A stretch of 64,000 nt of DNA from Escherichia phage vB_EcoM_PHB05: the sequence record NC_052652.1, one strand, 5' to 3'. The notes beneath the pieces were generated by a model. That model saw nothing but the letters and a program-made list of their open reading frames with translations, was not told the origin of the DNA and searched no databases. Every line of letters starts with the position of its first letter. The stretch's first letter is position 1. A program made the translations under genes and the position numbers. Below are positions 1-46,606 of the stretch, one piece after another.

Positions 1-71
1 AGCCTACTTTCTTAAAAGCGCAATAAATTAGAATTATCTTGATTTTTAGGACGTTTTATAGTATAGAAAAT

Positions 72-280
72 ATGCAAATGATAATCATTATCAACTATCT
101 TCCACGGGTGGCACTATTTCACGCAGGATCATTTCATTTGGCAAGGTGTATATAGATGTTTAGAAATGCCAAGCCATTGATTTACTTAGAATTTATCTTT
201 TTTGTTGTGAGTAATGCCTTTCTTGCTCAGAAAATAATCAAAAGTCTTATAAGTCATTGAATGATAATGCAAATGATAAT
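72..280. repeat. 14-bp direct repeat ATGCAAATGATAAT (72-85 and 267-280) in 5' noncoding region
   Basis: Exact 14-mer seen twice about 195 bp apart in ORF-free region. Confidence 0.5.
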
Positions 281-406
281 AATTCTCATTGATATTTGAG
301 GGGGACGGTCAGCAGAAATCGGGGGGCGCTGAAAATCGCGTTAAGCACCTCTCGCAAGCGAGCAGTATTTTGCGGCAAGTTATTGATATTATTGACTTTA
401 CGCTTA

Positions 407-520
407 TGAAAAGGGGGTGTGTCGAAATAAATAGGGTATACCGGAAAATTTTTGTGGCATAGATATTTATTTGTCTATATTATGTACAAAGGGGTGTGTT
501 AAAAATATTAGGTATATATA
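407..520. repeat. Two copies of about 33-bp motif AAAGGGGTGTGT-N-AAATA-N-TAGGTATA (about 408-443 and 487-520)
   Basis: Near-identical G-rich/AT motif repeated about 80 bp apart upstream of first CDS; possible regulatory or protein-binding sites. Confidence 0.45.
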
Positions 521-696
521 GAATAATTGATAGGGAAATCCTATACTAAATCCTTCATTATTGCAGCGGGTGAAAGACAGAATCGAAGATGCAAATAATG
601 CTTGCATTGGATAGAAATGTCTGTATAGTGGTTTGCATACCGCGCACGACGCGTTTCCATTTTCAATAAAATGTTAGCATTATGGGGAGGTAGAAA

Positions 697-1158
697 ATGA
701 GACAACTATTTATACTGGAAGCATATGTGCAATGTGTTGCAGATTATGTCAAAGAACACTCAAGTTTGTTAGATGTAACCTGTGCAGTGCAAAATGATGT
801 AGGTATTGTCTGTGTGCGACATATCTTATCTGAAACTCGTTATGAAGTATTTCGTGCCAAGTTGTTTGGATGTGATCAAGTGCATGTAAACTTCTTGGAT
901 TCCAATTTTCGTTATGCTTTAGAAAATATTGATGATTATCTTCCTTGCTCTCCGACCGGATATGTGATGATGGCAGCAAATGAAGTAACACCAAGCAACA
1001 ATGAGCGGGAAACTTTGTTACGGAAGAAAATACGCCAACTGCAAGTGTTGAATGAAATGAAAGAAGAGATTGAAAAAGAACTGAAAGAAGATTTTGGTAC
1101 GCTTCCAAAAGACGCTTTGAAATGGTATGATGAACTAGGAGAGGAAAGTTATGAATAA
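697..1158 (+). CDS. hypothetical protein (paralog of 6911-7162 product)
   Basis: 153-aa ORF; N-terminal 80 aa share conserved blocks with the 6911 ORF (AYV..V..H.SLL.V, HxLS.T.Y.VF, NF....LEN). Confidence 0.55.
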   Translation: MRQLFILEAYVQCVADYVKEHSSLLDVTCAVQNDVGIVCVRHILSETRYEVFRAKLFGCDQVHVNFLDSNFRYALENIDDYLPCSPTGYVMMAANEVTPSNNERETLLRKKIRQLQVLNEMKEEIEKELKEDFGTLPKDALKWYDELGEESYE

Positions 1159-1327
1159 AGAAACTACTGTGTACTTAGTAACAAAGAATACCCCAGGCTG
1201 GAGCCAATGCAGCACTGTTCCTTACAAGATCTGTGCAACATTAGAACTAGCACAACGTGCAGAAGCAGAAGTGAATGCCATGCAATACAGCTATGGTGAG
1301 ATCATTCCTTTTACTCTTGAACAATAA
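1151..1327 (+). CDS. small hypothetical protein (58 aa)
   Basis: ATG 1151 preceded by GGAGAGGAAAG RBS-like run; overlaps stop of upstream gene. Confidence 0.3.
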   Translation: MNKETTVYLVTKNTPGWSQCSTVPYKICATLELAQRAEAEVNAMQYSYGEIIPFTLEQ

Positions 1328-1338
1328 GGATTTGTGTA

Positions 1339-1791
1339 ATGTTTGAAATTGGTAAAGTGTATCGTTTTAAGAACGCATCTTATATCCGCAAGTTTGCTAA
1401 TGTGTCTGAGTGCAATAGCAAGATTGCTTCTTTCTTAGGTGATTCCTATTTTCGTGTATTAGATGTGGATGACTGGTATGGTGTCACTGCTTTGCAATCC
1501 TTAGCAGGAGAACAAGAAATTATCGCTCAAAATGAAGGAGACTTTCTTCAGTGTTACACGTTGCTTGCAAAAAGTGAGTTTGAATACTTTGTAGAAGTAT
1601 TAGAAGAAGCACCAAAAAGTAAACACGAAGAGAAATACTTGCTTGTAGTGGACGGAGTTCCGATCATGGAAACCATCTCCCGTGAGGAAGTTGAAAAAGA
1701 GGCGAAACGTTACAAGCTGGATCGTACACAGAGTGTAGTTGAAATCTATTCTCTTGTTGGTGTTGCAGATATTAGTGTGAACATCGTATAA
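1339..1791 (+). CDS. hypothetical protein
   Basis: 150-aa ORF in tandem + strand early block; no recognisable motif. Confidence 0.55.
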   Translation: MFEIGKVYRFKNASYIRKFANVSECNSKIASFLGDSYFRVLDVDDWYGVTALQSLAGEQEIIAQNEGDFLQCYTLLAKSEFEYFVEVLEEAPKSKHEEKYLLVVDGVPIMETISREEVEKEAKRYKLDRTQSVVEIYSLVGVADISVNIV

Positions 1792-1794
1792 TAT

Positions 1795-2007
1795 ATGTGT
1801 AATGACAGATACATTCTTCGTGTATCTGATAAGTCTCCAATGTTTGACTGGCGGGGTTGGTGGCTACTAGCTCCGATGCAAGGTCTGACAGACGTGGAAA
1901 AGGAGGCTTATGTGTATACAAAAGAAGAGATAGAAGATAGCCTTTATTTGACAGATAGTATTAAGAATGGTATCTTTGAGTGTAAATTGAAAGGAGAGGA
2001 AGAATGA
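1795..2007 (+). CDS. hypothetical protein
   Basis: 70-aa ORF tightly packed after previous gene. Confidence 0.4.
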   Translation: MCNDRYILRVSDKSPMFDWRGWWLLAPMQGLTDVEKEAYVYTKEEIEDSLYLTDSIKNGIFECKLKGEEE

Positions 2008-2303
2008 CTGTTACAGAAAAACTGCGCTGTATTGCAAAGCAAAGTGGAGAAGGCTTGTGGTTTCCTATTGATGAAGTTATTCAGGACTGTTATGATCAGG
2101 CAAAAACTGGCAAATACTCCAAAGCATTTAAACCATCTGTTTTCGGTTTGGATGACTACCCGACAAATGAACAAGCAAAGAAACGCCAAGTTGATTTGAT
2201 TGATCTTGCTATGGAAGCACTACGAGAACGTGGACTTAGTAAGGTGTATGCTTTAAACACCAAAGAGGGTTTTGTAGATTCAGTGATCGTAGACTGGCAT
2301 TAA
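2004..2303 (+). CDS. hypothetical protein
   Basis: 99-aa ORF, 4-nt overlap with upstream gene. Confidence 0.5.
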   Translation: MTVTEKLRCIAKQSGEGLWFPIDEVIQDCYDQAKTGKYSKAFKPSVFGLDDYPTNEQAKKRQVDLIDLAMEALRERGLSKVYALNTKEGFVDSVIVDWH

Positions 2304-2312
2304 GGAGAAGCC

Positions 2313-2681
2313 ATGCAAGAGAATAATAAAGTGTGTAACATGAAAAGCAGCCCCTATTTGCTACAATTTTATGAGTGGTGGTTGGAACAAGAAGATACAA
2401 ACTTTAGCAAAAAGCATTATGGTCTTTGCACGTGTCTTGTAGACTTCTTATACAACATTGCTTGGATAAAAGATGTTGAGAATGTAGCAAACCTTCAAGC
2501 CTCTGTACGAGAGGAAATGAAGGAACAGTTTAAGAAAGCAGGTTTGAACCATTTACATCCATTTAATACAGATTTCTCACATTACTTTACAGAAACAGAG
2601 TTAGGCATTGCACACCTTAACAAAGAACGTGTACAATGGGTGATTGATCGTATTCGTGATATGGAGAAATACAATGGTTAA
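2313..2681 (+). CDS. hypothetical protein (paralog of 3305-3889 product)
   Basis: Shares LLQFY..W, HPFN, HLN.(E/K)R(V/I).WV..R blocks with the 3305 ORF. Confidence 0.55.
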   Translation: MQENNKVCNMKSSPYLLQFYEWWLEQEDTNFSKKHYGLCTCLVDFLYNIAWIKDVENVANLQASVREEMKEQFKKAGLNHLHPFNTDFSHYFTETELGIAHLNKERVQWVIDRIRDMEKYNG

Positions 2682-2892
2682 GTTTAAAACTTTCTGTGCA
2701 ATCTCTGTTTGTCTTATTCTTGCATACGTGTTATTCTCTGGTATCATTCGTTTAGGTGATCATATGGCAAGAGAAGCTCGTGAAAGTGAAGCTAAAAAAG
2801 AACAGTGTATTGTGTTCAAGCATCAAAGAGATGCTGAAAAGTTTCTCGCACTTGATTGCAATCGTTATGTATCTTATCAAATGTATGAGTAA
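2674..2892 (+). CDS. small membrane protein
   Basis: Start refined to ATG 2674 (MVKFKTF...); hydrophobic helix FCAISVCLILAYVLFSGII. Confidence 0.45.
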   Translation: MVKFKTFCAISVCLILAYVLFSGIIRLGDHMAREARESEAKKEQCIVFKHQRDAEKFLALDCNRYVSYQMYE

Positions 2893-2901
2893 GGAGGATT
2901 T

Positions 2902-3126
2902 ATGGTAAAACGTCTGGAATGGGATGCGTGTACTGCTCACGCTTGTCACTGTGATATTGTGGAAGATCCTAATGGAGAAATGGTGTATTATGAAGATTAC
3001 GAAGCATTGCACAATGCTGTGATTGCTTTACTGGATGATATTAGCTCACGCTACCCAGGACAACAATTCACGTGTCCACATATTCAACTGTTAGCCAAAC
3101 TTACGGAGTATCCAAGTGTTCCATAA
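2902..3126 (+). CDS. hypothetical protein
   Basis: 74-aa ORF, RBS-like AAGGAGGA upstream. Confidence 0.45.
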   Translation: MVKRLEWDACTAHACHCDIVEDPNGEMVYYEDYEALHNAVIALLDDISSRYPGQQFTCPHIQLLAKLTEYPSVP

Positions 3127-3127
3127 T

Positions 3128-3295
3128 ATGGGTGTCCCTGAACAACTGCTCTTTATTGTAGGACTAGTAGGCTTATTGGCGGCTGGAGCTAAAGCCGCTT
3201 CTCACACACGTCACATAATGTTAAGATTTCTATTCCTGCTCCCTTCTATCCTCGTACTACTAGTCATACTGATCGATAACATTTTTCACAATTAA
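3128..3295 (+). CDS. small two-helix membrane peptide (55 aa)
   Basis: ATG 3128 overlapping upstream stop; translation is strongly hydrophobic (LLFIVGLVGLLAAGA ... FLFLLPSILVLLVILI); below the ORF-track cutoff. Confidence 0.3.
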   Translation: MGVPEQLLFIVGLVGLLAAGAKAASHTRHIMLRFLFLLPSILVLLVILIDNIFHN

Positions 3296-3304
3296 GGAGA
3301 GGTT

Positions 3305-3889
3305 ATGAGTAAAATTATACCAAGCAGTTATGAATTATTGCAGTTTTATGTATATTATATAGACTGGGTTACTAGATCGAATGTTAAAGACAATGCGATG
3401 TTTAGTAAAAACATTTGTTTAACAGAAAGTATCTTCCGTTACTGGCACACAGGTAGAAAGTGTACACACAGTGAAGCTATGCGCATTGTAGGTGAATACC
3501 TGGAGCAATTGCAAAAAGCAGAACTTCCTGTCCTTCACCCATTCAATGAATCTAAAGAAGAATTAGAACAAGAGTGTAAGGAAGGTAAGTGCCATTTGAA
3601 TGAAAAACGTATTGAATGGGTAAGGCAACGTTTAGCCGATGCAGGAAAGCCTCCTAGTAACTCTGACTATACGTGGTACGATGTAGAGGGTTTAGTTCAG
3701 GGTTTTGAGGCTTGTGCTATAGATAATACCAATTTTGCCAAAGTTTTATGCGAGGTTTATGATCTGGCAGATAAAATCCGAAATCAAGGATGGAAACAAG
3801 AGCATAAAGAATCATATGAACGTCTTGACAAGATTTTCAAACAGATCTATTCTAACCACAAAGAGATGTTCCAAATGGAGGATGTGTAA
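3305..3889 (+). CDS. hypothetical protein (paralog of 2313-2681 product)
   Basis: 194-aa ORF with AAGGAGAGG RBS; shared blocks with the 2313 ORF. Confidence 0.55.
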   Translation: MSKIIPSSYELLQFYVYYIDWVTRSNVKDNAMFSKNICLTESIFRYWHTGRKCTHSEAMRIVGEYLEQLQKAELPVLHPFNESKEELEQECKEGKCHLNEKRIEWVRQRLADAGKPPSNSDYTWYDVEGLVQGFEACAIDNTNFAKVLCEVYDLADKIRNQGWKQEHKESYERLDKIFKQIYSNHKEMFQMEDV

Positions 3890-4575
3890 TGAAAGAGATT
3901 ATGTTTGAAGGTCATCGTTACGAAGTTCCAGACAATGCAAATTTTATGGCTCGTGATATCACTGGAGATGTGTTCTGGTTTGAAGATGAACCTGTATTTT
4001 CTTCGAACAAACACTGGTTTTCACAACAATCTTCTTCGGAAAATATGACTTTTGGCTACGTAGAACCTAAAGTCCGTTGCAGAGCAGCTTCTTCTTTGGT
4101 AAAAATTGCGCAGGATGATCAAGAAAATACTCCAGATGTTGTTAGTGCACTACTGAAGTACATTGCAGAACTTGAAAATAAAATTAAAGAAGCAGAAACT
4201 AAGGTGAAAGCACGATCAGCAATCATTGAATCTATGTCTGAACGTATTTTAGAATTAGAAGATTTGTGTGGAGAGGCTTATCAAGTGGTTGGTGCACTGG
4301 CTTGTGAAGCAGAAATGTTTGAAACTTCAGAACAAGTTTCACATATGTTAGATAATTTGAGTGAATGTAAAATGATTCATGATGATGTATTGCCATTTTG
4401 TTGCAATGTTAACAAAACAGAGCAAACAGAAGATTCAGAAACAGTTTATGTTCCGCTAATGTGTGTTCCAGATCATCTAAAAGGTGTATTCTCTTGTAAA
4501 TGGTCACTGTTGAGCGTTAATAATTGTGGTGAAAACTATTCTGCTAACATTGAATTGCTAAAACACGTTAAATAA
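3889..4575 (+). CDS. hypothetical protein
   Basis: 228-aa ORF; ATGA start/stop overlap with upstream gene. Confidence 0.55.
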   Translation: MKEIMFEGHRYEVPDNANFMARDITGDVFWFEDEPVFSSNKHWFSQQSSSENMTFGYVEPKVRCRAASSLVKIAQDDQENTPDVVSALLKYIAELENKIKEAETKVKARSAIIESMSERILELEDLCGEAYQVVGALACEAEMFETSEQVSHMLDNLSECKMIHDDVLPFCCNVNKTEQTEDSETVYVPLMCVPDHLKGVFSCKWSLLSVNNCGENYSANIELLKHVK

Positions 4576-4585
4576 GGAGAGTGAT

Positions 4586-7845: not shown

Positions 7846-8052
7846 GAGTAGTAAGTAAGATATAAAGAGTATATAGTTAGTTATAGAGTTAGTAACATTA
7901 CATATACTCTTTCCATGTGTAACATGGAATATTCTCTACCTCGCTATCGCTCGGTATATAAGATTAGGGTAGCATGTTTTTTACGAAAAGTAAAACTGTT
8001 TGTACCGATTGATAGCAGGTTTTTAATAGATTTTATCTATGAGGAGTAGAAA

Positions 8053-8271
8053 GTGTACAAATTATATAAAGCAAAAGATAAGTTTACGGGTAATACATCT
8101 GGTTTCTATGTAACACCTCGTGGTGTTGCTGTGTTCGATTGGATCTCTGGTACTCCAGATCGTGAAATAATCTCTCTTGTAAAACTGTCAGAACAAGATT
8201 ATACTTACGGTGACATTACAACGTTCTATTCTCGTGCAGAAAATCCAAAACTAATTGCGGAGTGGGAATAA
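8053..8271 (+). CDS. hypothetical protein
   Basis: 72-aa ORF, GTG start with GAGGAG RBS. Confidence 0.4.
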   Translation: MYKLYKAKDKFTGNTSGFYVTPRGVAVFDWISGTPDREIISLVKLSEQDYTYGDITTFYSRAENPKLIAEWE

Positions 8272-8534
8272 TGGTTACACGATATGGCTTAGAGGTGTAC
8301 AGCCAAGGTGCTGCTGGTCAATGTGATATTGTACCAGATCCAGAAGGGGATTATGTTCTTCTTGCTAATTACAATAAGCTAGAAGAAAGACTTCTGGCTG
8401 TGTATGCTAAAGAGAACAAAACAATCTGCCCTTATTGCAGTGGAATGGGTTGGGTGGTTGCAGATGTTGGACAAATGTACGAATGTGTGCCTTGTAAAAC
8501 CACAGGATTTATTGAAAAGGATACTGACAAATGA
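8271..8534 (+). CDS. hypothetical protein (CxxC...CxxC)
   Basis: Start refined to ATG 8271; CPYC...CVPC pattern suggests zinc ribbon. Confidence 0.4.
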   Translation: MVTRYGLEVYSQGAAGQCDIVPDPEGDYVLLANYNKLEERLLAVYAKENKTICPYCSGMGWVVADVGQMYECVPCKTTGFIEKDTDK

Positions 8535-8779
8535 CTGTAGCAGATAAAATGAGAGAACTGGCAGAAAACGCAGAACTTAACAAAGCAAAGGATAGTCTAC
8601 AAAATATCTACTCGTATATTGAGAGAGCAGCTAAAGATGGAGACAGAGAAGTTGCTATCTACACGCTTTATCCAACTTTTGTAAAAGTTAACTTGGATGC
8701 TGAAGGTTTTTCAACTTTTATTGATACAGAAACATCTCATTACGACGAAAACTTTACTCGAATAGTTATTCGATGGTAA
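8531..8779 (+). CDS. hypothetical protein
   Basis: 82-aa ORF overlapping upstream stop. Confidence 0.45.
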   Translation: MTVADKMRELAENAELNKAKDSLQNIYSYIERAAKDGDREVAIYTLYPTFVKVNLDAEGFSTFIDTETSHYDENFTRIVIRW

Positions 8780-12316: not shown

Positions 12317-13129
12317 TTATTTAGTCAAATGATCTTCTATCATTTTTATGAAAGCAGGATTGCTAAAAGCATCTGCGGCCTTTTCTCGATAAACAAAGAC
12401 TCCTCTATCTTCGTAAAGAAGAGTTTCTTCGTAATTAATTCCTGGGTTAACAACAATCATTTTTGTACCCATACTAAGTGCAGGGAATAATTCCCAATTA
12501 AAATTGATAACTTGGTTTGAACATCCTACTACAACAACCAAATCTTGCATGGTCAAAGTATCAAACAAGTGAGCCATATCTGCATACAAAGGTGCAGCCT
12601 CACCAAAAAATACAACATTAGGCTTCACCCAGTTATAATCATCTATGTTTATGCTGTTGTAACCAATATCTACCAGTGTTTTGTAATCCCCAGGGTGCAT
12701 ACGGTAAACTACTTCAGGAAGATATCCGTGCACGTGAATAACCGAATCTCTGTCTACACCTGCTCGCTCTAGTAGATCATCAACGTTTGTTGTCAAGTTT
12801 ACTACTTGGTTAGGATATTCCTTAAACCACTTTGCTATTTGAATATGTGCAGCATTAGGTTGTACATCTTTAAGCTCAACACGTCTTTTGTTATAAAATT
12901 CGTGTGTTTTGGCATACAAATCCATACCGTTTTCGTCTACACCACCAACCACTGGAAGATCTGGAGATGTTCTAACACGATAACCTGCTTGGAAAGCTCC
13001 AATATCGCAGACCTCTTCTAAATCATATTCTTGCCATAAAGCACGACCACTATCTGTGTCTGTTCGGAATGTTCGAATCCCACTGTCTGCACTTAAACCT
13101 GCGCCACTGACAAAAATTACTCTTCGCAT
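12317..13129 (-). CDS. Sir2-like (sirtuin-fold) NAD-binding protein, apparently lacking zinc ribbon
   Basis: GAGLSADSGIRTFR matches sirtuin GAGIS.ESGIP.FR; TTNVDDL..AG, HVHG, KPNVVFFGE blocks present; no CxxC pairs seen. Confidence 0.6.
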   Translation of the reverse strand: MRRVIFVSGAGLSADSGIRTFRTDTDSGRALWQEYDLEEVCDIGAFQAGYRVRTSPDLPVVGGVDENGMDLYAKTHEFYNKRRVELKDVQPNAAHIQIAKWFKEYPNQVVNLTTNVDDLLERAGVDRDSVIHVHGYLPEVVYRMHPGDYKTLVDIGYNSINIDDYNWVKPNVVFFGEAAPLYADMAHLFDTLTMQDLVVVVGCSNQVINFNWELFPALSMGTKMIVVNPGINYEETLLYEDRGVFVYREKAADAFSNPAFIKMIEDHLTK

Positions 13130-14460: not shown

Positions 14461-15450
14461 TCATTCCTCCATACACTTAAGAATATGTGCAATGACAGGT
14501 ATAGTCCAACCATTACCTAACATCTTATATGCTTGTGTGTTACTACTCACTTTAAAGTAATCATCTGGAACACCTTGTAAGCGGCAACACTCTTTAACCG
14601 TTAACTTCCTATAATGCACACCTTCACTCAATTTTTCAAAGGCATCCCGATATCTTCCAGGTGGAATGTAAGCTAATAGTACGTCTTTCGGCACAGTTGT
14701 GAGGCAACGAGTTTTTTCACTGTCCTGAACTTCCAAGCAATGTACCAAACGATCAGTTTTAGATGTACTACGTTTGCCATTTTCATTAATTCTACGCCCA
14801 TATATTGCTGCTGGATAAAAAACCAGTTGTCTGCGACTCTTTTCAAAATACTGTTCTATATTACCACCTTTGGCATAATTTGCATCTATGCAATACGCCT
14901 TGTCCCTGTCTACAATACTATCATCTTCAATAATATCTTGCAACACTTCATTGGTAATATCCCAAGGCTTTATTTCCCAATTGCACCAGTATAAACGTTG
15001 TCTATTCTGTGCCGTGAAATCTGCGGAGTTAATGAATACGGGATCAACACCTAAGTAACTTGTGATCACGTTTTCCCACTCCACCTTCATCTTAACGTTT
15101 TCAAGCATGAACTTAACATTAGGGTTAAACTTTTTAATATGTTCAAGAATTTCAACATATTCAAAGAACAGTTTAGATCGCGGATCTTGAAAGTTCAAAC
15201 CCTTACCAGAAGAAGAGAAGCCTTGGCACGGACTACCGCCTAGCAAAAGATCAATTTCTCCCCACGGGATATCCCATTCTCTCCATTTTGTAACATCACC
15301 TAATTGAATAATATCTGGAAAATTAGCTTGGCTTTCAGCTATGGCAAATTTGTCCAATTCTGAGGCATAATACTTATCTACTTCAATACCTGCACTTTTT
15401 AGTGCAAGCATTCCTCCCGACATACCATCAAAAAGACTTAAAACTTTCAT
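14461..15450 (-). CDS. DNA (cytosine-5)-methyltransferase
   Basis: Motif I LSLFDGMSGG (FxGxGG), motif IV GGSPCQGFS (PCQ), ENV motif. Confidence 0.85.
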   Translation of the reverse strand: MKVLSLFDGMSGGMLALKSAGIEVDKYYASELDKFAIAESQANFPDIIQLGDVTKWREWDIPWGEIDLLLGGSPCQGFSSSGKGLNFQDPRSKLFFEYVEILEHIKKFNPNVKFMLENVKMKVEWENVITSYLGVDPVFINSADFTAQNRQRLYWCNWEIKPWDITNEVLQDIIEDDSIVDRDKAYCIDANYAKGGNIEQYFEKSRRQLVFYPAAIYGRRINENGKRSTSKTDRLVHCLEVQDSEKTRCLTTVPKDVLLAYIPPGRYRDAFEKLSEGVHYRKLTVKECCRLQGVPDDYFKVSSNTQAYKMLGNGWTIPVIAHILKCMEE

Positions 15451-40271: not shown

Positions 40272-40994
40272 TTAAGCAATGATTGCTGCGATATTAGGTT
40301 TAACAAAGGTAGATGGCTTCATAATTTTACCTTTGTCATCAAAGAATACGTATACCTTTTGAACTTCGTTATATACAGCATGTACTCCAGTATAAGAACC
40401 TTCTGCACGATCTTTGCTTCGCATCTCGATAGCATCACACTCTTTTTCAAGAGCTTCAACAATATCCTTAGTTTCCCAAATAGCCAGGAGTTGCTTCTTG
40501 GTAGGATACTTGGACTCATTGCTATTCAACACTTCACGCATAACCTTCTTCTCGTTATAAACAGAACGCACCAAAGTATCTCGTGCCATACGTGTAAGTG
40601 TAAGAGACATTAGGGCAAATTGCAAGTCATTTTCTACCATTTTATCAAATTCAATGATAACATCGTAAATGTTTTCTGCCAGAACATCTCCTGTCGGCAT
40701 TTCCAGAGCTTTATCAACACCTTCTTTACCAAAGAACATAAACGCCAAGTAGGATGCTACCACAAAAATATCTGCTGCTGCATCAAGTAATTCAACGTGA
40801 TCATTTTCCTGCGCTGCTGCTTGGAACTCTTTTAGTTCTTCTCGTACAAAAGAAAGTTGAGCTTCAAACATCTCTTGAGTAAATTCTGGAGTCACTCCAC
40901 CACGTGCCTTAGCATTCCAAGCAACAATTTGATCGGCAGCTTTGATAAAGAAGCTATTGTCCACTTTTACTTGTTTGAAAAAATTCTCGATCAT
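40272..40994 (-). CDS. MazG-like nucleotide pyrophosphohydrolase (tentative)
   Basis: EELKE ... ELLDAAAD spacing resembles MazG E..E...E..D metal-binding motif. Confidence 0.4.
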   Translation of the reverse strand: MIENFFKQVKVDNSFFIKAADQIVAWNAKARGGVTPEFTQEMFEAQLSFVREELKEFQAAAQENDHVELLDAAADIFVVASYLAFMFFGKEGVDKALEMPTGDVLAENIYDVIIEFDKMVENDLQFALMSLTLTRMARDTLVRSVYNEKKVMREVLNSNESKYPTKKQLLAIWETKDIVEALEKECDAIEMRSKDRAEGSYTGVHAVYNEVQKVYVFFDDKGKIMKPSTFVKPNIAAIIA

Positions 40995-41192: not shown

Positions 41193-42308
41193 TTACTCTG
41201 CTGGTTCCCAAGTACCTGGAATCATCTTACGTACACGTACACCTGTTGGTTTAGTAGGTATTCCACCATCGGAAAACTCTTCATACTCAATCTCAACAAA
41301 TTTACCAATTAACATTTCGGCATTTTCTGCTTTACGATAGTTAATGGTTTCATCTGAATCCTTACGCATCAGGAATTCGACTACTTTACCATTTTCCATC
41401 TCGCCTGTCAATACCCCGTCACCATTTTTATCACGTTTTGCACTTACCACCTTAACTTCAAGCGTCTGCCGTGGTTTACGTTTAATAACATCATAAGAAC
41501 GTTTATCAAACTCGTAAACACCTTGTGCATTACGATAAACAACACCTTCAGCTTTCTCACGCAGAGCTTTTGCATAGAACGCATCAAACTGCTCTTGGTT
41601 TTCAATGTACTCTGTATGCACTACACAAATAAGTTCATCTAAACCTTTATCTTCAACAACTTCTTTTAGAGCAGCCAAAACTTCAACCCTCTTCTCAAAT
41701 GGTACAGATGGTACAGGAACATCATATACATAGTATTTAAGAAGCGGAGTGTTAGCATTATGCTTTTTCCACGCACTATTAATTTGTTGAAGGCTAAGGA
41801 CACCCAAACCAGCAAAAACTTCACCGTCAAGAGGATGACCAACTACTTCTTTAATGAAGGTTGGAATTTCTTTCCAGTGAGGTGGAAGTTTATATACTTC
41901 CCCAGCTTTAGATAAGCATTCACCTTGCATGTTAATCATTGAACGTAGACCATTCAATTTATACTGTGCATAACCTGGGAACAAAACACGATCAGCATAA
42001 TCTTTATAATCCTGACATTTCATGGGCGTGGAAGGAACATGGTTTTCAGCTTCCTCTTTTGTTTTATAGTACCCATTCTTAAGTTGTTTTGTCCATTTGG
42101 CAAGAGCTTCTATTTCAGCTTGTTCTTCTGCTGTTGTTTCATTTGAGCGACCAATATTTTTAGGTTCTGCCGTATAAGATTTGCTAGTAATCTTTCCACC
42201 TAATTGACCATGAGCAACAGTTACAACACTACCTTCGGTATAGACTGACCACTGTTTAATTTTACCTGTAGAAGTTTTACCATATAGTGTAGGATTAGTT
42301 TGTTTCAT
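41193..42308 (-). CDS. ATP-dependent DNA ligase
   Basis: Start refined to ATG 42308 (GGAGG RBS); motif I KLNGLR, EGVVYR, KxK blocks. Confidence 0.8.
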   Translation of the reverse strand: MKQTNPTLYGKTSTGKIKQWSVYTEGSVVTVAHGQLGGKITSKSYTAEPKNIGRSNETTAEEQAEIEALAKWTKQLKNGYYKTKEEAENHVPSTPMKCQDYKDYADRVLFPGYAQYKLNGLRSMINMQGECLSKAGEVYKLPPHWKEIPTFIKEVVGHPLDGEVFAGLGVLSLQQINSAWKKHNANTPLLKYYVYDVPVPSVPFEKRVEVLAALKEVVEDKGLDELICVVHTEYIENQEQFDAFYAKALREKAEGVVYRNAQGVYEFDKRSYDVIKRKPRQTLEVKVVSAKRDKNGDGVLTGEMENGKVVEFLMRKDSDETINYRKAENAEMLIGKFVEIEYEEFSDGGIPTKPTGVRVRKMIPGTWEPAE

Positions 42309-42719: not shown

Positions 42720-43040
42720 TTAATCCTTAAGACGTTCATTTAAATCTGCAATAACATCACCTAAATCTTCACATTCCAGTGTTAACTCTGAAACTTGTCC
42801 ACTCAAATAACAAACTTCTTCATTTAAATCTGAAATAATGTTTTCTAATGAATCTACTTGGTCATCATACGAACGTTTTGTTTCTTCAAGTTCTTCCGTA
42901 AGATCATTAATCAAACGGAGCAAAGATAAGATATAGCCGTCTCCTGTCTCGTTCCTCCACTCACTTCCGTAGCGATAAATAATAATTTCACCATTATCGA
43001 CTACTGTAAAATACTTACCTTCACCAGAATAAATTTCCAT
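42720..43040 (-). CDS. hypothetical protein
   Basis: 106-aa ORF. Confidence 0.45.
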   Translation of the reverse strand: MEIYSGEGKYFTVVDNGEIIIYRYGSEWRNETGDGYILSLLRLINDLTEELEETKRSYDDQVDSLENIISDLNEEVCYLSGQVSELTLECEDLGDVIADLNERLKD

Positions 43041-43049
43041 ACACTCTCC

Positions 43050-43454
43050 TTATTGTAGCTTAAGTGAACTGCGAAGACGTTTCTCTTGCTGATCACGAAT
43101 ATGTTGTGGAACCTCATGAATTGAGTCGTTACCGTGCCTATTTTCAACAACTAAGGAGATAACTTGATAACCAAACTCTTCAGCAAGAGTTAAATAAGGT
43201 TTAAGTTCTTTCTCTGTGGTTGAAGTGTTAGAGACAATAATCTTTTTAATATTAGATGCCATAGCATCACGAACAATACTCTGACACCATGCGTGTGCTT
43301 TACCTACATTCTCTGGCTTCCAATCGTAAACACCACTTTCTGTGTAATGATATTGATCTGCCTCACAGATAGGCCAATAACCTTCAGAAATAATTTCTGC
43401 TACTGTAGATTTACCTGCACCTGAAACACCACGTAAAATGATAAGTTGTTTCAT
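43050..43454 (-). CDS. P-loop kinase, polynucleotide 5'-kinase-like
   Basis: MKQLIILRGVSGAGKST Walker A at N-terminus, about 134 aa like T4 Pnk kinase domain. Confidence 0.6.
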   Translation of the reverse strand: MKQLIILRGVSGAGKSTVAEIISEGYWPICEADQYHYTESGVYDWKPENVGKAHAWCQSIVRDAMASNIKKIIVSNTSTTEKELKPYLTLAEEFGYQVISLVVENRHGNDSIHEVPQHIRDQQEKRLRSSLKLQ

Positions 43455-44387
43455 TTAGCCTCCAAAGAAGTTTTCTATTTCTTTACGTCGCTCTTGTGGA
43501 TCTAAAGCAGCCCATTGAGTCTTAGTAAAGTTGTTTCGAAGCCATTCTAGCAAAGTATAATATTCTTCGTCAACAATTTGTTTAGCATTTTTTGGGTTGT
43601 CCCAAATCATATCCCACTTCTTATTGCCACCACGCATAAGGAATTTCTTAGCAAGATAATATGGTGACTTAATCTTTAACAGCAAGTTAAACGGATAGTT
43701 TGTTTCCCGAACAACAAACCCTTCGTGCTTACAATGTTTAGACATTTCAACAACATCTGAAAATTTAATCATCGGATAAACTTCAGGACGTTTAAATTTT
43801 GTAATAGATGCAATCCCATCAAGCACACCTTCGGGTAGCATGAAACTTGTCCCATCAAGATTTTGAATTCTTGCTCCAATTAAGTATGCGCCTGGTTCTT
43901 CTTCGACAATATGTGGATCAGAAGGATCACAGATTTCAAAAAGGAAAGTTGCTTTTGCACTTTCTGTCCACTTAATGAAATATTCTATGTCATCACACTC
44001 GGAAACAATATGGTTCTTGGCAAGAGTTGCAAAATCTGACTCTAGGCTCCCTGTTGTTGATACAATAAGTTGCCCTTTGTACACACCTACAGATGCCATA
44101 AAACCGTTTACTTTACGGACAGCATCTACAAGCTGGTCTGCTGGAAGATCTGTACCATTCTCAAAACGATTAAAGATTTTAGTAAAAGGCCAGATAACAA
44201 CATTGTCTTCTGAGTCAACAACCAACCCACGACAATCTAGGAGTCGTTTGTCAACGTTCCACAAGTTATCCCAGAATACATTGTTTTTGTATTTAAGTAC
44301 AGCAAGACCAGCATACTCTCCAGATTTAACTTCTTTTTTATGCACTAAACCTTTTGCAATCAGGTCATCACAATTGAACTTAGCCAC
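43455..44387 (-). CDS. covalent nucleotidyltransferase ligase (RNA-ligase-like)
   Basis: Motif I KVNGF, motif III FLFEI, motif IV EGFVVRE, motif V LLLKIK in canonical order. Confidence 0.6.
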   Translation of the reverse strand: MAKFNCDDLIAKGLVHKKEVKSGEYAGLAVLKYKNNVFWDNLWNVDKRLLDCRGLVVDSEDNVVIWPFTKIFNRFENGTDLPADQLVDAVRKVNGFMASVGVYKGQLIVSTTGSLESDFATLAKNHIVSECDDIEYFIKWTESAKATFLFEICDPSDPHIVEEEPGAYLIGARIQNLDGTSFMLPEGVLDGIASITKFKRPEVYPMIKFSDVVEMSKHCKHEGFVVRETNYPFNLLLKIKSPYYLAKKFLMRGGNKKWDMIWDNPKNAKQIVDEEYYTLLEWLRNNFTKTQWAALDPQERRKEIENFFGG

Positions 44388-44388
44388 C

Positions 44389-44940
44389 TTAATCTCCTTT
44401 GATTATCTTATGATGGTCTACAACAACAATATCACGCTTATCCATAATAGAGATGATTTCGTCAAAATGCAAGATTTTTCCGTGTGCATCCCAACCAACA
44501 TCCAACATTTTCCCATACAAATGATCAGGGAATGATCCGTGAGAGTGCCCGTGTAGCATGATTGATCCATGCCCTTGTTTATTCCAAGCAGCCATAGGGT
44601 AATGACTTAAGACGAAGAACAGTTTCTGATATTTCACTTCGTCATAATACACCACCTCGCCATATTCTGCAAGCACTTCTCGGTGTTTGCTGTAATCATG
44701 GTTCCCAACACAGTAAGTGATATCACCTTGAAGACGTGAAGCAATTTTACGGGTATCTTCTTCAGTCCCGAAACAGAAGTCGCCCAAATGCCACATCTTG
44801 ACACCAGGACTCGTAGCACATTTATTCCATGCTTCAATCAGTGCTTCTGTCATATGCTCCATATCTTCCCACGGGCGATATTCAGGAGCAAACTCTCGAA
44901 TACGTTTGTGCATAAAATGCAAATCACTTGTAATAAACAT
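44389..44940 (-). CDS. calcineurin-like metallophosphoesterase
   Basis: SDLHF, GDF, GNHD, GHSH motifs. Confidence 0.8.
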   Translation of the reverse strand: MFITSDLHFMHKRIREFAPEYRPWEDMEHMTEALIEAWNKCATSPGVKMWHLGDFCFGTEEDTRKIASRLQGDITYCVGNHDYSKHREVLAEYGEVVYYDEVKYQKLFFVLSHYPMAAWNKQGHGSIMLHGHSHGSFPDHLYGKMLDVGWDAHGKILHFDEIISIMDKRDIVVVDHHKIIKGD

Positions 44941-45344
44941 TAGTATAATCCCTCGCTGAATAGTTCACTGTCGTGACCATTTCTTTCATAGTTAATTTGT
45001 TTGGCGTTATCTGCAATGATATAAGCATCTTTGCGACTCCACCAATTATAATATTGATCAATAAACCCTTGATTATCAGGTAAGCAAAACAGTTTATCGA
45101 TCAATCCTGCATCTTTTAAAACATTAAGTTGTGCAGATAGTACAGGATTTGCATGCCTAACACAAGGAATAATTAACTCTTCGCCATTGTTGAGAATATA
45201 CTTATTCGCAGCGCAGACTATAACACGTTGAGCATAGTGATCCTCACCAATCCAAGTAAGAGGTTGGTAACAAATATCATGTTGATTAGTAGCGCACATC
45301 AATTTTCTACATACTCTTCGTCTGTATGTATATCGTAAAAGCAA
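44940..45344 (-). CDS. hypothetical protein
   Basis: 134-aa ORF; start uncertain. Confidence 0.45.
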   Translation of the reverse strand: MLLRYTYRRRVCRKLMCATNQHDICYQPLTWIGEDHYAQRVIVCAANKYILNNGEELIIPCVRHANPVLSAQLNVLKDAGLIDKLFCLPDNQGFIDQYYNWWSRKDAYIIADNAKQINYERNGHDSELFSEGLY

Positions 45345-45454
45345 TCTTCAAAAGTTGCAAGTGCTTTTTCTACATCGGGCCAATGGTTAGTGTGTTTGTA
45401 TATATAAAACCCATCCCCTTCATCTACCCAAATAACATAAAGCATAACACCTCC

Positions 45455-45829
45455 TTAATAGTTAACACGTTTAATTTCAACACCATAGGATGAAATAAAA
45501 TTTTCCTTGGCTAACATATATTTACCAGCAGCAGAAGGATTTGATGTATGAACATAGATAGTTTTAAGAGCATCCCATTCACCCGCGTACAACATACATT
45601 CTACGTCTAAGAACGCATGATATCCTTCTTGATCTTCTCCAAGATCATTATCGAAGTGTATCTCTGAGATATTATTGAAATTATCTTCATCTGAAACAAA
45701 AGATAACCAATCCTCAAAAGATTTTAACCAAATGGCATCCTCATAACCATAATCTTTAGGATCTCTTAAATCGTCTAACCAAAGAATTTTAGCCACTATC
45801 AACCCCCTTCCTGTTTCTCTTCTTTCCAA
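45455..45829 (-). CDS. hypothetical protein (receiver-domain-like residue spacing)
   Basis: ILWLDD ... HFDNDLG ... VHTSNP ... K spacing loosely resembles CheY-like fold. Confidence 0.4.
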   Translation of the reverse strand: MERRETGRGLIVAKILWLDDLRDPKDYGYEDAIWLKSFEDWLSFVSDEDNFNNISEIHFDNDLGEDQEGYHAFLDVECMLYAGEWDALKTIYVHTSNPSAAGKYMLAKENFISSYGVEIKRVNY

Positions 45830-45990
45830 GTTTTACCATTATCTACCAACTTCTTAGAAACAGCAAATCTTTCTCCATTGATATAAAACAAATAAAGAAT
45901 AAAGGATTTTCCTATAGTTACAGTATCTACTACTTTTACACGCTTCACACCTTGCATGTATTTGGCTTTACCTGAATAAATAAGGAACAT
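45799..45990 (-). CDS. hypothetical protein
   Basis: 63-aa ORF. Confidence 0.35.
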   Translation of the reverse strand: MFLIYSGKAKYMQGVKRVKVVDTVTIGKSFILYLFYINGERFAVSKKLVDNGKTWKEEKQEGG

Positions 45991-46268
45991 TACTTATTCC
46001 TTTTGTTGTTGATCACATCTAAAGCTGTGTAAGGTTTGTTTGTACCGCTGTATTCAAGAATAATTGGTACATATTCATAGACCAACTCAAAAGTACCATA
46101 CATAGAATCTGCAACTGAAATAAGCATTTCAGTGCCTTTGTCGTTCTTAATTAATGAAAATCTTGCCCCTGGTTTATTGAGCACTTCATATTTCTTACCT
46201 GCTGTCAGCAAACCTGAATACCATTCATTTTGCACAACAGACAAACACTTCAGATAAGTTTTTCTCAT
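45990..46268 (-). CDS. hypothetical protein
   Basis: 92-aa ORF. Confidence 0.45.
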   Translation of the reverse strand: MRKTYLKCLSVVQNEWYSGLLTAGKKYEVLNKPGARFSLIKNDKGTEMLISVADSMYGTFELVYEYVPIILEYSGTNKPYTALDVINNKRNK

Positions 46269-46606
46269 TTCTTTTTGCTCCTTCTTTTAGGCTTCTCGTA
46301 TAAACCTAACACAGCCGATTCTTTTGCGCAAATAGGAACTGACTTCATTCCTCGTTTTTTAGCTTCTGGTAGATTCAAAACCCACCAGCCAAACCAGTAC
46401 AATTCATCTTCTGTGAAAGGATCTGCCATAGGATCTGCATCCCGTTCTTCAAATTTAGCAAGAGCTTCTTCTATCTTTTCTATTGGAGTATCAAAGACAA
46501 AAGCCTCTGTGTCAAATTTTTGTTTCTTAGGAGCGGCTTTTGCCGCCCCATCTTTAGATGCGCGCTTTGTTACGGATCGCTTCTTCGGTGTTTTCGCCAT
46601 CAACAA
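46265..46606 (-). CDS. hypothetical protein with basic N- and C-terminal tails
   Basis: Lys/Arg/Ala-rich N-terminus (AKTPKKRSVTKRASKDGAAKAAPKK), possible DNA binding. Confidence 0.45.
   Translation of the reverse strand: MLMAKTPKKRSVTKRASKDGAAKAAPKKQKFDTEAFVFDTPIEKIEEALAKFEERDADPMADPFTEDELYWFGWWVLNLPEAKKRGMKSVPICAKESAVLGLYEKPKRRSKKK

Follow-up and report, generated by a model that had tools for sequence, protein, structure and literature searches.

Host defences that cleave tRNA (PrrC, RloC, PARIS, retron-linked nucleases, Cas13 and HEPN toxins) are now recognised as common, and phages answer them with spare tRNAs and with the repair of broken tRNAs. The question raised by the locus described here is whether three adjacent genes of Escherichia phage vB_EcoM_PHB05 (NC_052652.1), encoding a P-loop kinase, a covalent ligase and a metallophosphoesterase, form such a repair module. 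The stretch of DNA that was analysed, 64,000 nucleotides in length and referred to below as the window, is that of a phi92-like coliphage (Justusliebigvirus, Stephanstirmvirinae). Its 43000–46000 region shares 99.9% identity with Escherichia phage vB_vPM_PD06 and 97% with BASEL phage Bas60 PaulScherrer. On the evidence set out below, the cassette probably constitutes a split heal-and-seal pathway, made up of three polypeptides, for RNA breaks that end in a 2',3'-cyclic phosphate and a 5'-OH.

Organization of the cassette

The original prediction, made from the sequence alone, had described three consecutive genes on the minus strand, and the list of open reading frames (ORFs) gave exactly the same coordinates. 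All of the motifs quoted in it were present in the translations, namely GVSGAGKST in the kinase, KVNGF, FLFEI, EGFVVRE and LLKIK in the ligase, and GDF, GNHD and GHSH in the phosphoesterase. The family matches of the three proteins, given below, are much stronger than chance would produce. At the junctions, the ligase and kinase genes meet in TAAATG, the phosphoesterase and ligase genes in TAAgGTG, and a further upstream gene (44940–45299) and the phosphoesterase gene in TAATG, with the Shine-Dalgarno sequences of the cassette genes sitting inside the preceding coding sequence. These abutting or overlapping junctions, together with the Shine-Dalgarno sequences, indicate a compact unit in which translation of the genes is coupled. 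The cassette is located within a replication and nucleotide-metabolism block, and all genes from ~12 kb to 47.4 kb form one leftward block with GC-skew reversal at both of its ends. Consensus promoter and terminator scans of 39.5–48 kb performed no better than on shuffled sequence and were not used for operon definition.

Conservation of the three genes across phage loci

A scan of IMG/VR with ligase-derived patterns yielded 70 loci, with ligase identities ranging from 100% down to 30%, and neighbouring genes were counted within 6 kb of the ligase. A kinase homologue was identified in 63 of the 70 loci (median gap to the ligase 117 nt) and a phosphoesterase homologue in 67 (median gap 157 nt). 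Both were present in 61 loci, and in 60 of these the genes lay on one strand. The gene order was phosphoesterase–ligase–kinase in 33 loci and kinase–ligase–phosphoesterase in 26. Among accessory genes, cREC (cyclic-phosphate processing receiver-like) was found in 10/70 loci, SIR2 in 11/70 and a NARP-like Prs or NadV gene in 36/70. With the phosphoesterase at 67/70, the low counts of cREC and SIR2 mean that the conserved core does not need either of them.

To avoid the bias of starting from the ligase, a reciprocal check was made from the phosphoesterase side using three family members taken from a profile search. In all three contigs, genes for an AAA_33 kinase and a PF09511 ligase stood a short distance upstream of the phosphoesterase gene in the same orientation, and in one of them a "Swiss-army-knife" HAD phosphatase (HAD_SAK_2) lay between ligase and phosphoesterase. 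The persistence of the trio through rearrangement and deep divergence is the strongest evidence for a joint function. Kinase, ligase and phosphoesterase are thus the conserved core, with SIR2 and cREC being clade-specific accessories.

The ligase belongs to the Rnl1 clade

The ligase matched PF09511 (RNA_lig_T4_1) over residues 52–244 with an E-value of 5.7e-14 and 52.9 bits (cutoff 28.3), while none of the NCBIfam models matched it. It also carries the phrog_562 label "RNA ligase and tail fiber protein attachment catalyst". In an alignment of 25 sequences, with identity down to 49%, the residues K92-x-N94-G95 (motif I), E151 (motif III), E222-G223 (motif IV) and K238-x-K240 (motif V) were invariant, as were R53 and K70, with F72 being at least 90% conserved. 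When the family profile was searched against the PDB, T4 Rnl1 was the sole match (2e-9). In this alignment R53, K70, F72, K92, E151, E222-G223 and K238/K240 of the phage ligase correspond to R54, K75, F77, K99, E159, E227-G228 and K240/K242 of T4, the N-terminal CRG (R53) and PFTKIFN (K70, F72) being matched to T4 LECRG and PMEKFFN. In T4 Rnl1 the residues R54, K75 and F76, as well as those of the motifs, contact ATP or are essential (PMC6379707).

A confident AlphaFold model was obtained (predicted local distance difference test, pLDDT, 90.8). Among solved ligases its closest fold was T4 Rnl1, with a tabulated value of 22.2, followed by fungal Trl1 ligase domains (21.3–21.8), archaeal Rnl3 (16–17), Rnl5 (12.9) and Rnl2 (12.0–12.6), with all DNA ligases at 10 or less. 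The original prediction had considered the ligase to be probably RNA-directed and had proposed profile searches for assigning its family. These place it in the Rnl1 clade, through PF09511 and the sole PDB match, and as the fold ranking agrees, an RNA-directed ligase is well supported. The enzyme is predicted to seal 3'-OH and 5'-phosphate RNA ends via ligase-AMP and AppRNA intermediates.

The hhalign match ends at residue 246 of the phage ligase (T4 Rnl1 248), just after motif V. The remaining C-terminal region consists of ~69 aa of short helices, compared with ~120 aa in T4 Rnl1, where the C-terminal domain (residues 255–374) confers specificity for the tRNA anticodon loop (PMC6379707). A domain of the T4 Rnl1 type was not found in the phage ligase by sequence alignment, with partial structural overlap being possible.

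The kinase is related to polynucleotide kinases

The kinase matched AAA_33 (6.9e-10) and, in PHROG, phrog_2071 (8.9e-58) and phrog_505, "polynucleotide kinase" (5.8e-9). A family profile built from 27 homologues with 28–75% identity matched T4 Pnk over residues 1–145, the full kinase domain (6.4e-9), Capnocytophaga Pnkp1 (9e-9), Clostridium thermocellum (Cth) Pnk (2.4e-8) and mammalian PNKP (2.5e-6). The tRNA(Sec) kinase PSTK was matched at an equal level (5.9e-9). The P-loop reads G9-x-x-G12-x-G14-K15-S-T17, and the residues R8, G9, G14, K15, T17, D33, Y87 and H113 were invariant in the 27 sequences. Residue D33 (in E-A-D-x-Y) aligns with the general base D35 of T4 Pnk (in N-R-D-D-Y). In CthPnk, D38 is the general base which activates the 5'-OH (PMC3902929). 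With this aspartate kept and with the profile reaching T4 Pnk, Pnkp1, CthPnk and PNKP (6e-9 to 3e-6), the earlier description of a Pnk-like P-loop kinase was borne out.

Around the catalytic centre, the position aligned with R38 of T4 Pnk is occupied by H36, which is variable, and that aligned with R126 by D110. A nearby arginine, R106 (in NRHGN), is confined to one subgroup. In T4 Pnk, R38 and R126 are the acceptor- and donor-binding arginines, respectively. From its sequence, the protein appears to be a nucleic-acid kinase of the Pnk clade whose active-site periphery is a variant of its own.

The phosphoesterase retains a binuclear metal site

The phosphoesterase matched phrog_547 (4.6e-55), and its match to Pfam Metallophos_2 (1e-4, 22.7 bits) fell under the 27-bit cutoff, with homologues carrying PF12850 or PF00149. 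In a PDB search, the family profile had a sole strong match in Aquifex aq_1665 (1XM7; 7e-24) and weak ones in GpdQ and YfcE; lambda phosphatase and CthPnkp were not retrieved. Across 25 sequences of 30–63% identity, D6-x-H8, G53-D54, G79-N80-H81, H113, G131-H132 and H134 were invariant, and the metal-site residues D6, H8, D54, N80, H81, H113, H132 and H134 were at least 90% conserved in 61 sequences. The metal ligands of CthPnkp are D187, H189, D233, N263, H323 and H376 (PMC3675462), and the CthPnkp equivalents of the phage residues are essential for its 2',3'-phosphatase (PMC3675462, PMC2190708). What determines 2',3'-cyclic phosphodiesterase activity in this superfamily is the histidine of the GNH motif, as stated in PMC3675462 with reference to Keppetipola and Shuman 2008, and this phosphate-binding residue is invariant in the phage family as H81. 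The phage proteins therefore keep both this histidine and the whole of the binuclear metal site, in agreement with the calcineurin-like phosphoesterase first proposed.

Proposed repair pathway

The analysis establishes how the genes are arranged, to which families and folds their products belong, that the catalytic motifs are intact and that the trio is tightly co-inherited; the enzymatic activities, the order of the steps, the tRNA substrate and a role against host defence are inferred by analogy with T4 Pnkp/Rnl1 and bacterial Pnkp. A metal-independent ribonuclease of the host, such as a PrrC- or RloC-type anticodon nuclease, a HEPN or colicin-like RNase or Cas13, would cut RNA, most likely in the anticodon loop of a host or phage tRNA. 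The metallophosphoesterase would open and remove the cyclic phosphate to leave a 3'-OH, probably with the help of cREC in this clade, and the 5'-OH would be phosphorylated by the P-loop kinase. The Rnl1-type ligase would then join the 3'-OH and 5'-phosphate ends via Lys92-AMP.

The combination of T4 Pnk/Rnl and bacterial Pnkp-type logic put forward in the original prediction fits the kinase profile, the metal site and GNH histidine of the phosphoesterase and the co-inheritance of the three genes. Other genes for RNA-end processing, cREC and HAD_SAK_2, also recur in the cassettes. A tRNA is favoured as the substrate because 16 tRNA genes lie 6 kb away, because 14 of 35 diverse related loci have tRNA genes no more than 6 kb from the ligase (the other 21 having none nearby), and because the sole experimentally known role of a phage Rnl1 is the reversal of damage by a host anticodon nuclease (the T4 paradigm, cited in PMC6379707).

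Wider neighbourhood

The boundaries first drawn for the cassette (43050–44940) were too narrow, as the neighbourhood that has been described also takes in a coupled 119-aa gene, cREC, a MazG-like gene and, at a distance, a SIR2 gene (Table 1).

Table 1. Positions in the window of the core genes, accessory genes and context features
Feature	Position	Strand	Remarks
P-loop polynucleotide 5'-kinase-like protein, stand-alone	43050–43454	-	134 aa; core
Rnl1-clade ATP-dependent RNA ligase	43455–44387	-	310 aa; GTG start; ~69-aa C-terminal helical domain; core
Binuclear (calcineurin-like) metallophosphoesterase	44389–44940	-	183 aa; predicted 2',3'-cyclic phosphodiesterase/3'-phosphatase; core
119-aa protein	44940–45299	-	Lineage-specific accessory; phrog_839, PF26092; stop overlaps phosphoesterase start (TAATG)
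cREC (cyclic-phosphate processing receiver-like)	45455–45796	-	Accessory of the enterobacterial-phage clade; PF20274 3e-14, 53.9 bits (cutoff 27)
MazG-like nucleotide pyrophosphohydrolase	40272–40994	-	PRA-PH 3.2e-7; phrog_671 6.4e-28
ATP-dependent DNA ligase	41193–42308		PF01068 8.4e-11; phrog_114 6e-76; 1.1 kb downstream of cassette
SIR2-family protein	12317–13129	-	270 aa; PF02146 1.3e-22; 30 kb from cassette
16 tRNA genes	51277–54158	+	ARAGORN; context and candidate substrates, outside operon; 6 kb from cassette

The 119-aa protein has invariant residues C10, W16, R25, N32, C46, R48 and H49, as well as QGF-DQY, W86-W87 and LFSEGLY. Its model is confident, and its BFVD matches are uncharacterised phage proteins only. 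Scans with NCBIfam and with a copy of Pfam that does not hold PF26092 gave no match, a PDB sequence search returned nothing meaningful, and there was no PDB fold match. One source labels a homologue of this protein "putative anti-restriction nuclease". Further upstream, a lysine-rich protein of 113 aa (46265–46606, minus strand) had no family match and is named "putative transposase-like protein" in RefSeq; most loci of enterobacterial phages, as well as the locus L032, keep it (37–63% identity) on the upstream side of the cassette.

The receiver-type active site of cREC, as seen in nine sequences, is made up of LDD, HFDNDLGE, HTSNPSA and the lysine of K(F/Y)ML. The DD, D and K positions were invariant, and the T/S position was T in eight of the nine sequences and S in one. 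The catalytic role of cREC is a prediction of Iyer et al. (PMC7824862, PMC9503650), by which the protein is predicted to be a metal-independent cyclic phosphodiesterase. MazG homologues were located within 6 kb of the ligase in enterobacterial-phage loci, and MazG, a candidate participant in RNA repair, is listed as part of the sirtuin-centred neighbourhood (PMC9503650 section 3.7.3). The separate ATP-dependent DNA ligase reported in the original prediction was recovered, and its annotated coordinates agree.

No sirtuin adjoining the cassette was found in Pfam scans of the ORFs at 30–51 kb; a tblastn search with the sirtuin of an rV5-like locus (L007) detected one at the far end of the same leftward block (61% identity, 1e-113). 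In L007 the sirtuin gene (7926–8702) comes right after the kinase. The SIR2 protein of the window is possibly an NAD+-dependent accessory. The minus strand further carries a C-5 cytosine DNA methyltransferase gene (14461–15450; PF00145, 3e-43). At ~24.5–27.8 kb, also on the minus strand, the RefSeq annotation of the 99.9%-identical phage gives genes of the dTDP-rhamnose pathway, comprising a glucose-1-phosphate thymidylyltransferase, two epimerases and a dTDP-4-dehydrorhamnose 3,5-epimerase, which is unusual in a phage.

The large tRNA array that had been noted in the genome was confirmed, and it includes Lys-UUU, Tyr-GUA, Asn-GUU, Gln-UUG and Thr-UGU. Several of these isoacceptors are targets of known anticodon nucleases. 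Three genes have a CAU anticodon, and at least one of them may encode an initiator tRNA or an Ile tRNA modified with lysidine. In metagenomic phages, suppressor-type tRNAs were reported by ARAGORN a few kb from the cassette (L029 11546–11621, L063 10671–10743 and L033 9183–9255), two with the anticodon CTA (amber) and one with TTA (ochre). This hints that stop-codon-recoding phages are among the carriers of the cassette.

A Prs-like gene (47832–48725; TIGR01251, 3e-34) and a NadV/NAMPT-like gene (48797–50530; NF006629, 1e-138) are both encoded on the plus strand. Transcription of the pair diverges from that of the repair block, the distance to the phosphoesterase being ~2.9 kb. By gene architecture and protein similarity to related loci, it appears to have the architecture of NARP1 (Adps and Namat) of BASEL phage Bas63, in which NAD+ is rebuilt from ADP-ribose (ADPR) and nicotinamide against NAD-depleting defences (bioRxiv 10.1101/2024.02.11.579819). 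A megablast search with the pair from the window did not retrieve Bas63 itself. A metagenome contig of 160 kb from ENA (L074), belonging to a distant relative, carries at 1–4579, all on one strand, genes for NAMPT, a Macro protein and DUF6011, a small ORF, and then an AAA_33 kinase, a PF09511 ligase, HAD_SAK_2 and a metallophosphoesterase. On this contig NAD-reconstitution genes and an Adpp-like Macro protein therefore stand near a repair cassette with two different phosphatases.

Alternative explanations

Several points weigh against the RNA-repair pathway proposed above. The phosphoesterase motif GDFCFG is without the arginine of GDxxDR (Cth R237, lambda R53), and 1XM7, the nearest solved relative, has no known function. 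In the kinase, no conserved residue takes the place of T4 Pnk R38 and the arginine of the lid is not universal, so the acceptor of the enzyme could differ. As the tRNA-specificity domain of T4 is about twice as large as the C-terminal domain of the ligase, and the two cannot be aligned by sequence, specificity for tRNA of the T4 type cannot be assumed. A literature search on RNA ligase or RNA repair in Phapecoctavirus, Vequintavirinae, Stephanstirmvirinae and rV5 found no experimental study of any member of the trio. Finally, the NAD+-reconstitution genes near the ligase in 36/70 loci could point to nucleotide or ADP-ribose chemistry rather than to simple RNA repair.

The alternative which comes closest to the evidence, although still unlikely, is an NAD+-linked route similar to that of Trl1. 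The phosphoesterase, cREC or both would stop at a 3'-OH,2'-phosphate end, the ligase would require that 2'-phosphate, and the phosphate left at the junction would be removed with NAD+ by the phage SIR2 protein or host KptA, with the NARP1 genes sustaining NAD+. Ligation requiring a 2'-phosphate is a property of fungal and plant tRNA ligases, and the route is already a published hypothesis, the removal of the junction 2'-phosphate by SIR2 having been proposed by Iyer et al. (PMC9503650). The ligase itself shows some resemblance. Its motif I, K-x-N-G, is like the TLKENG of Trl1, in which Asn150 contacts a putative 2'-phosphate mimic, whereas T4 has K-E-D-G (PMC6379707), and motif IV reads EGFVVR compared with EGFVIR in Trl1. 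An invariant His159 lies at +8 from the motif III glutamate E151 (Trl1 His227 at +9), and the invariant residues K248 and R252 follow K240 of motif V at +8 and +12 (the RxxR arginines of Trl1 at +9 and +12). The putative 2'-phosphate site of CthTrl1 comprises N150, H227, R334 and R337 (PMC6379707), and N94, H159, K248 and R252 are candidate 2'-phosphate-binding residues of the phage ligase. However, T4 Rnl1 also has basic or histidine residues near the same positions (R166, H250 and K253), so the spacing match is weak evidence, and R227 of motif IV is not conserved in one ligase subgroup. In the PDB, T4 Rnl1 is the sole match of the ligase profile, with Trl1 not being retrieved even at E-values up to 10. 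Genes for cREC, SIR2 and NARP1-like proteins do occur in the same genome and are adjacent in rV5-like relatives, but these accessories, which the route needs, are scarce across the loci in comparison with the phosphoesterase (11/70 for SIR2 and 10/70 for cREC against 67/70). If this is true, a bacterial virus would for the first time be seen to use an RNA ligase pathway that depends on a 2'-phosphate, and E. coli KptA and phage sirtuins would gain a physiological substrate.

The remaining alternatives fit the evidence less well. It is quite improbable that the substrates of the phosphoesterase, and possibly of the kinase as well, are small-molecule nucleotides (immune signalling nucleotides, or ADP-ribose derivatives connected with the nearby NAD+ genes) rather than RNA ends, the linkage to the ligase reflecting a shared anti-defence island. 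This would suit the Prs and NadV genes of the NARP type, which 36/70 loci have at most 6 kb from the ligase, the Macro and NAMPT genes adjoining the cassette of L074 and the absence of a known substrate for 1XM7, but the phosphoesterase is linked far more tightly to the ligase and kinase (same strand, median gap 157 nt, 67/70) than to the NAD genes. In the window the latter are transcribed divergently at ~2.9 kb, and the trio is also kept in loci without NARP genes. Phage phosphatases which feed NARP1 do exist; the phosphoesterase was considered as one of these and dropped, as the NARP1-associated phosphatase is a Macro-domain protein and not a metallophosphoesterase (bioRxiv 10.64898/2026.01.28.702374). 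A role in the RNA metabolism of the phage itself, that is, maturation or quality control of its tRNA array or the rejoining of processed transcripts rather than counter-defence, is very unlikely. The tRNA genes or arrays within 6 kb of the cassette in 14/35 diverse loci, and at 6 kb in the window, would agree with it, but 21/35 loci have no nearby tRNA, ARAGORN reported no split or intron-bearing tRNA in the window, and reversal of anticodon-nuclease damage is the only role of a phage Rnl1 known from experiment (cited in PMC6379707). There is scarcely any likelihood that the trio processes and repairs DNA ends (by 3'-phosphatase, 5'-kinase and nick sealing) or that the ligase acts in non-catalytic tail-fibre attachment like T4 gp63. 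Although T4 Pnkp acts on DNA ends too, the phrog_562 label mentions tail fibres and the surrounding block is one of replication and nucleotide metabolism, a dedicated ATP-dependent DNA ligase is encoded 1.1 kb downstream, and strict co-conservation with a kinase and a phosphoesterase lacks a rationale for tail-fibre attachment.

Prior knowledge and significance

The three-gene cassette is real and was correctly interpreted, and as a prediction it is not new. In the GenBank and RefSeq entries for this phage and its sisters the genes are labelled "putative RNA ligase/RNA repair", "phosphoesterase" and "ATPase", the entry for Bas60 has "RNA ligase", "putative phosphoesterase" and "polynucleotide kinase", and the type of neighbourhood and its proposed role have been published (PMC9503650, PMC7824862), so that its discovery adds little. 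What is added here is quantitative evidence that the phosphoesterase-containing trio, and not the sirtuin, is the conserved core, along with the location of the displaced sirtuin and the short, non-T4 C-terminal domain of the ligase. For the phi92/rV5-like coliphages, which are represented in the BASEL collection and among therapy candidates, the cassette is the foremost candidate for a repair module, and the trio is kept far beyond them. It brings together a ligase of the T4 type and a phosphatase of the Clostridium type as separate proteins.

Comparison with known systems

The system of T4 (Pnkp and Rnl1, acting against PrrC) shares with the cassette the logic of a 5'-kinase, removal of the 2',3'-phosphate and an Rnl1-type ligase. 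The catalytic residues align, and the phage kinase aligns with the T4 Pnk kinase domain including D35. However, the phage kinase is a stand-alone protein of 134 aa which is not fused to a phosphatase, and the phage phosphatase is a binuclear metallophosphoesterase of the CthPnkp/lambda-phosphatase type whereas that of T4 is a DxDxT/HAD acylphosphatase. The phage ligase is shorter than T4 Rnl1 (310 aa compared with 374 aa), with a C-terminal domain of ~69 aa that cannot be aligned to the tRNA-specificity domain of T4, and has an asparagine in motif I where T4 has Asp101. The repair genes are dispersed in the T4 genome and contiguous in this phage.

The bacterial Pnkp/Hen1 systems (C. thermocellum Pnkp and Capnocytophaga Pnkp1-Rnl-Hen1) also combine a P-loop 5'-kinase with a binuclear metallophosphoesterase acting as 2',3'-phosphatase (PMC3675462, PMC2190708), and their metal ligands and phosphate-binding histidine are kept in the phage phosphoesterase. 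In the phage, the predicted activities are on separate polypeptides, and the phosphoesterase is much smaller, is without the GDxxDR arginine and is nearest to aq_1665. The cassette is not a member of these systems, which are marked by a Hen1 2'-O-methyltransferase partner and an Rnl4-type ligase; no Hen1 methyltransferase was found among the ORFs scanned in and next to the cassette. The fungal and plant Trl1 enzymes (LIG-KIN-CPD; Rnl6 clade) likewise have a cyclic phosphodiesterase, a 5'-kinase and an Rnl1-like adenylyltransferase, with K-x-N-G in motif I and EGFV(V/I)R in motif IV in both (PMC6379707). They differ in that there is no detectable sequence match, the C-terminal domains are different, and the predicted phosphodiesterase of the phage is a metallophosphoesterase or cREC and not a 2H enzyme.

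An equivalent set of genes makes up the type 2 sirtuin-centred neighbourhood of Iyer, Burroughs, Anantharaman and Aravind (2022), reported from Escherichia phage V5 and Proteus phage Mydo (PMC9503650 section 3.7.3). Its T4-like tRNA ligase, cREC, nucleotide kinase, MazG and calcineurin-like phosphoesterase are all found at 40.3–45.8 kb in the window. The rV5-like locus L007 has the order phosphoesterase, ligase, cREC, kinase, SIR2, DNA ligase and MazG, and orthologues of all of these are present in the window. The arrangement differs in that the SIR2 gene of the window is 30 kb away, being adjacent in L007, that cREC lies upstream of the phosphoesterase whereas in rV5-like phages it lies between ligase and kinase, and that an extra coupled gene (PF26092) is present. 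The near-universal presence of the phosphoesterase (67/70 loci), with SIR2 and cREC restricted to one clade, is also the reverse of the published description, in which there is "occasionally a calcineurin-like phosphoesterase" (PMC9503650).

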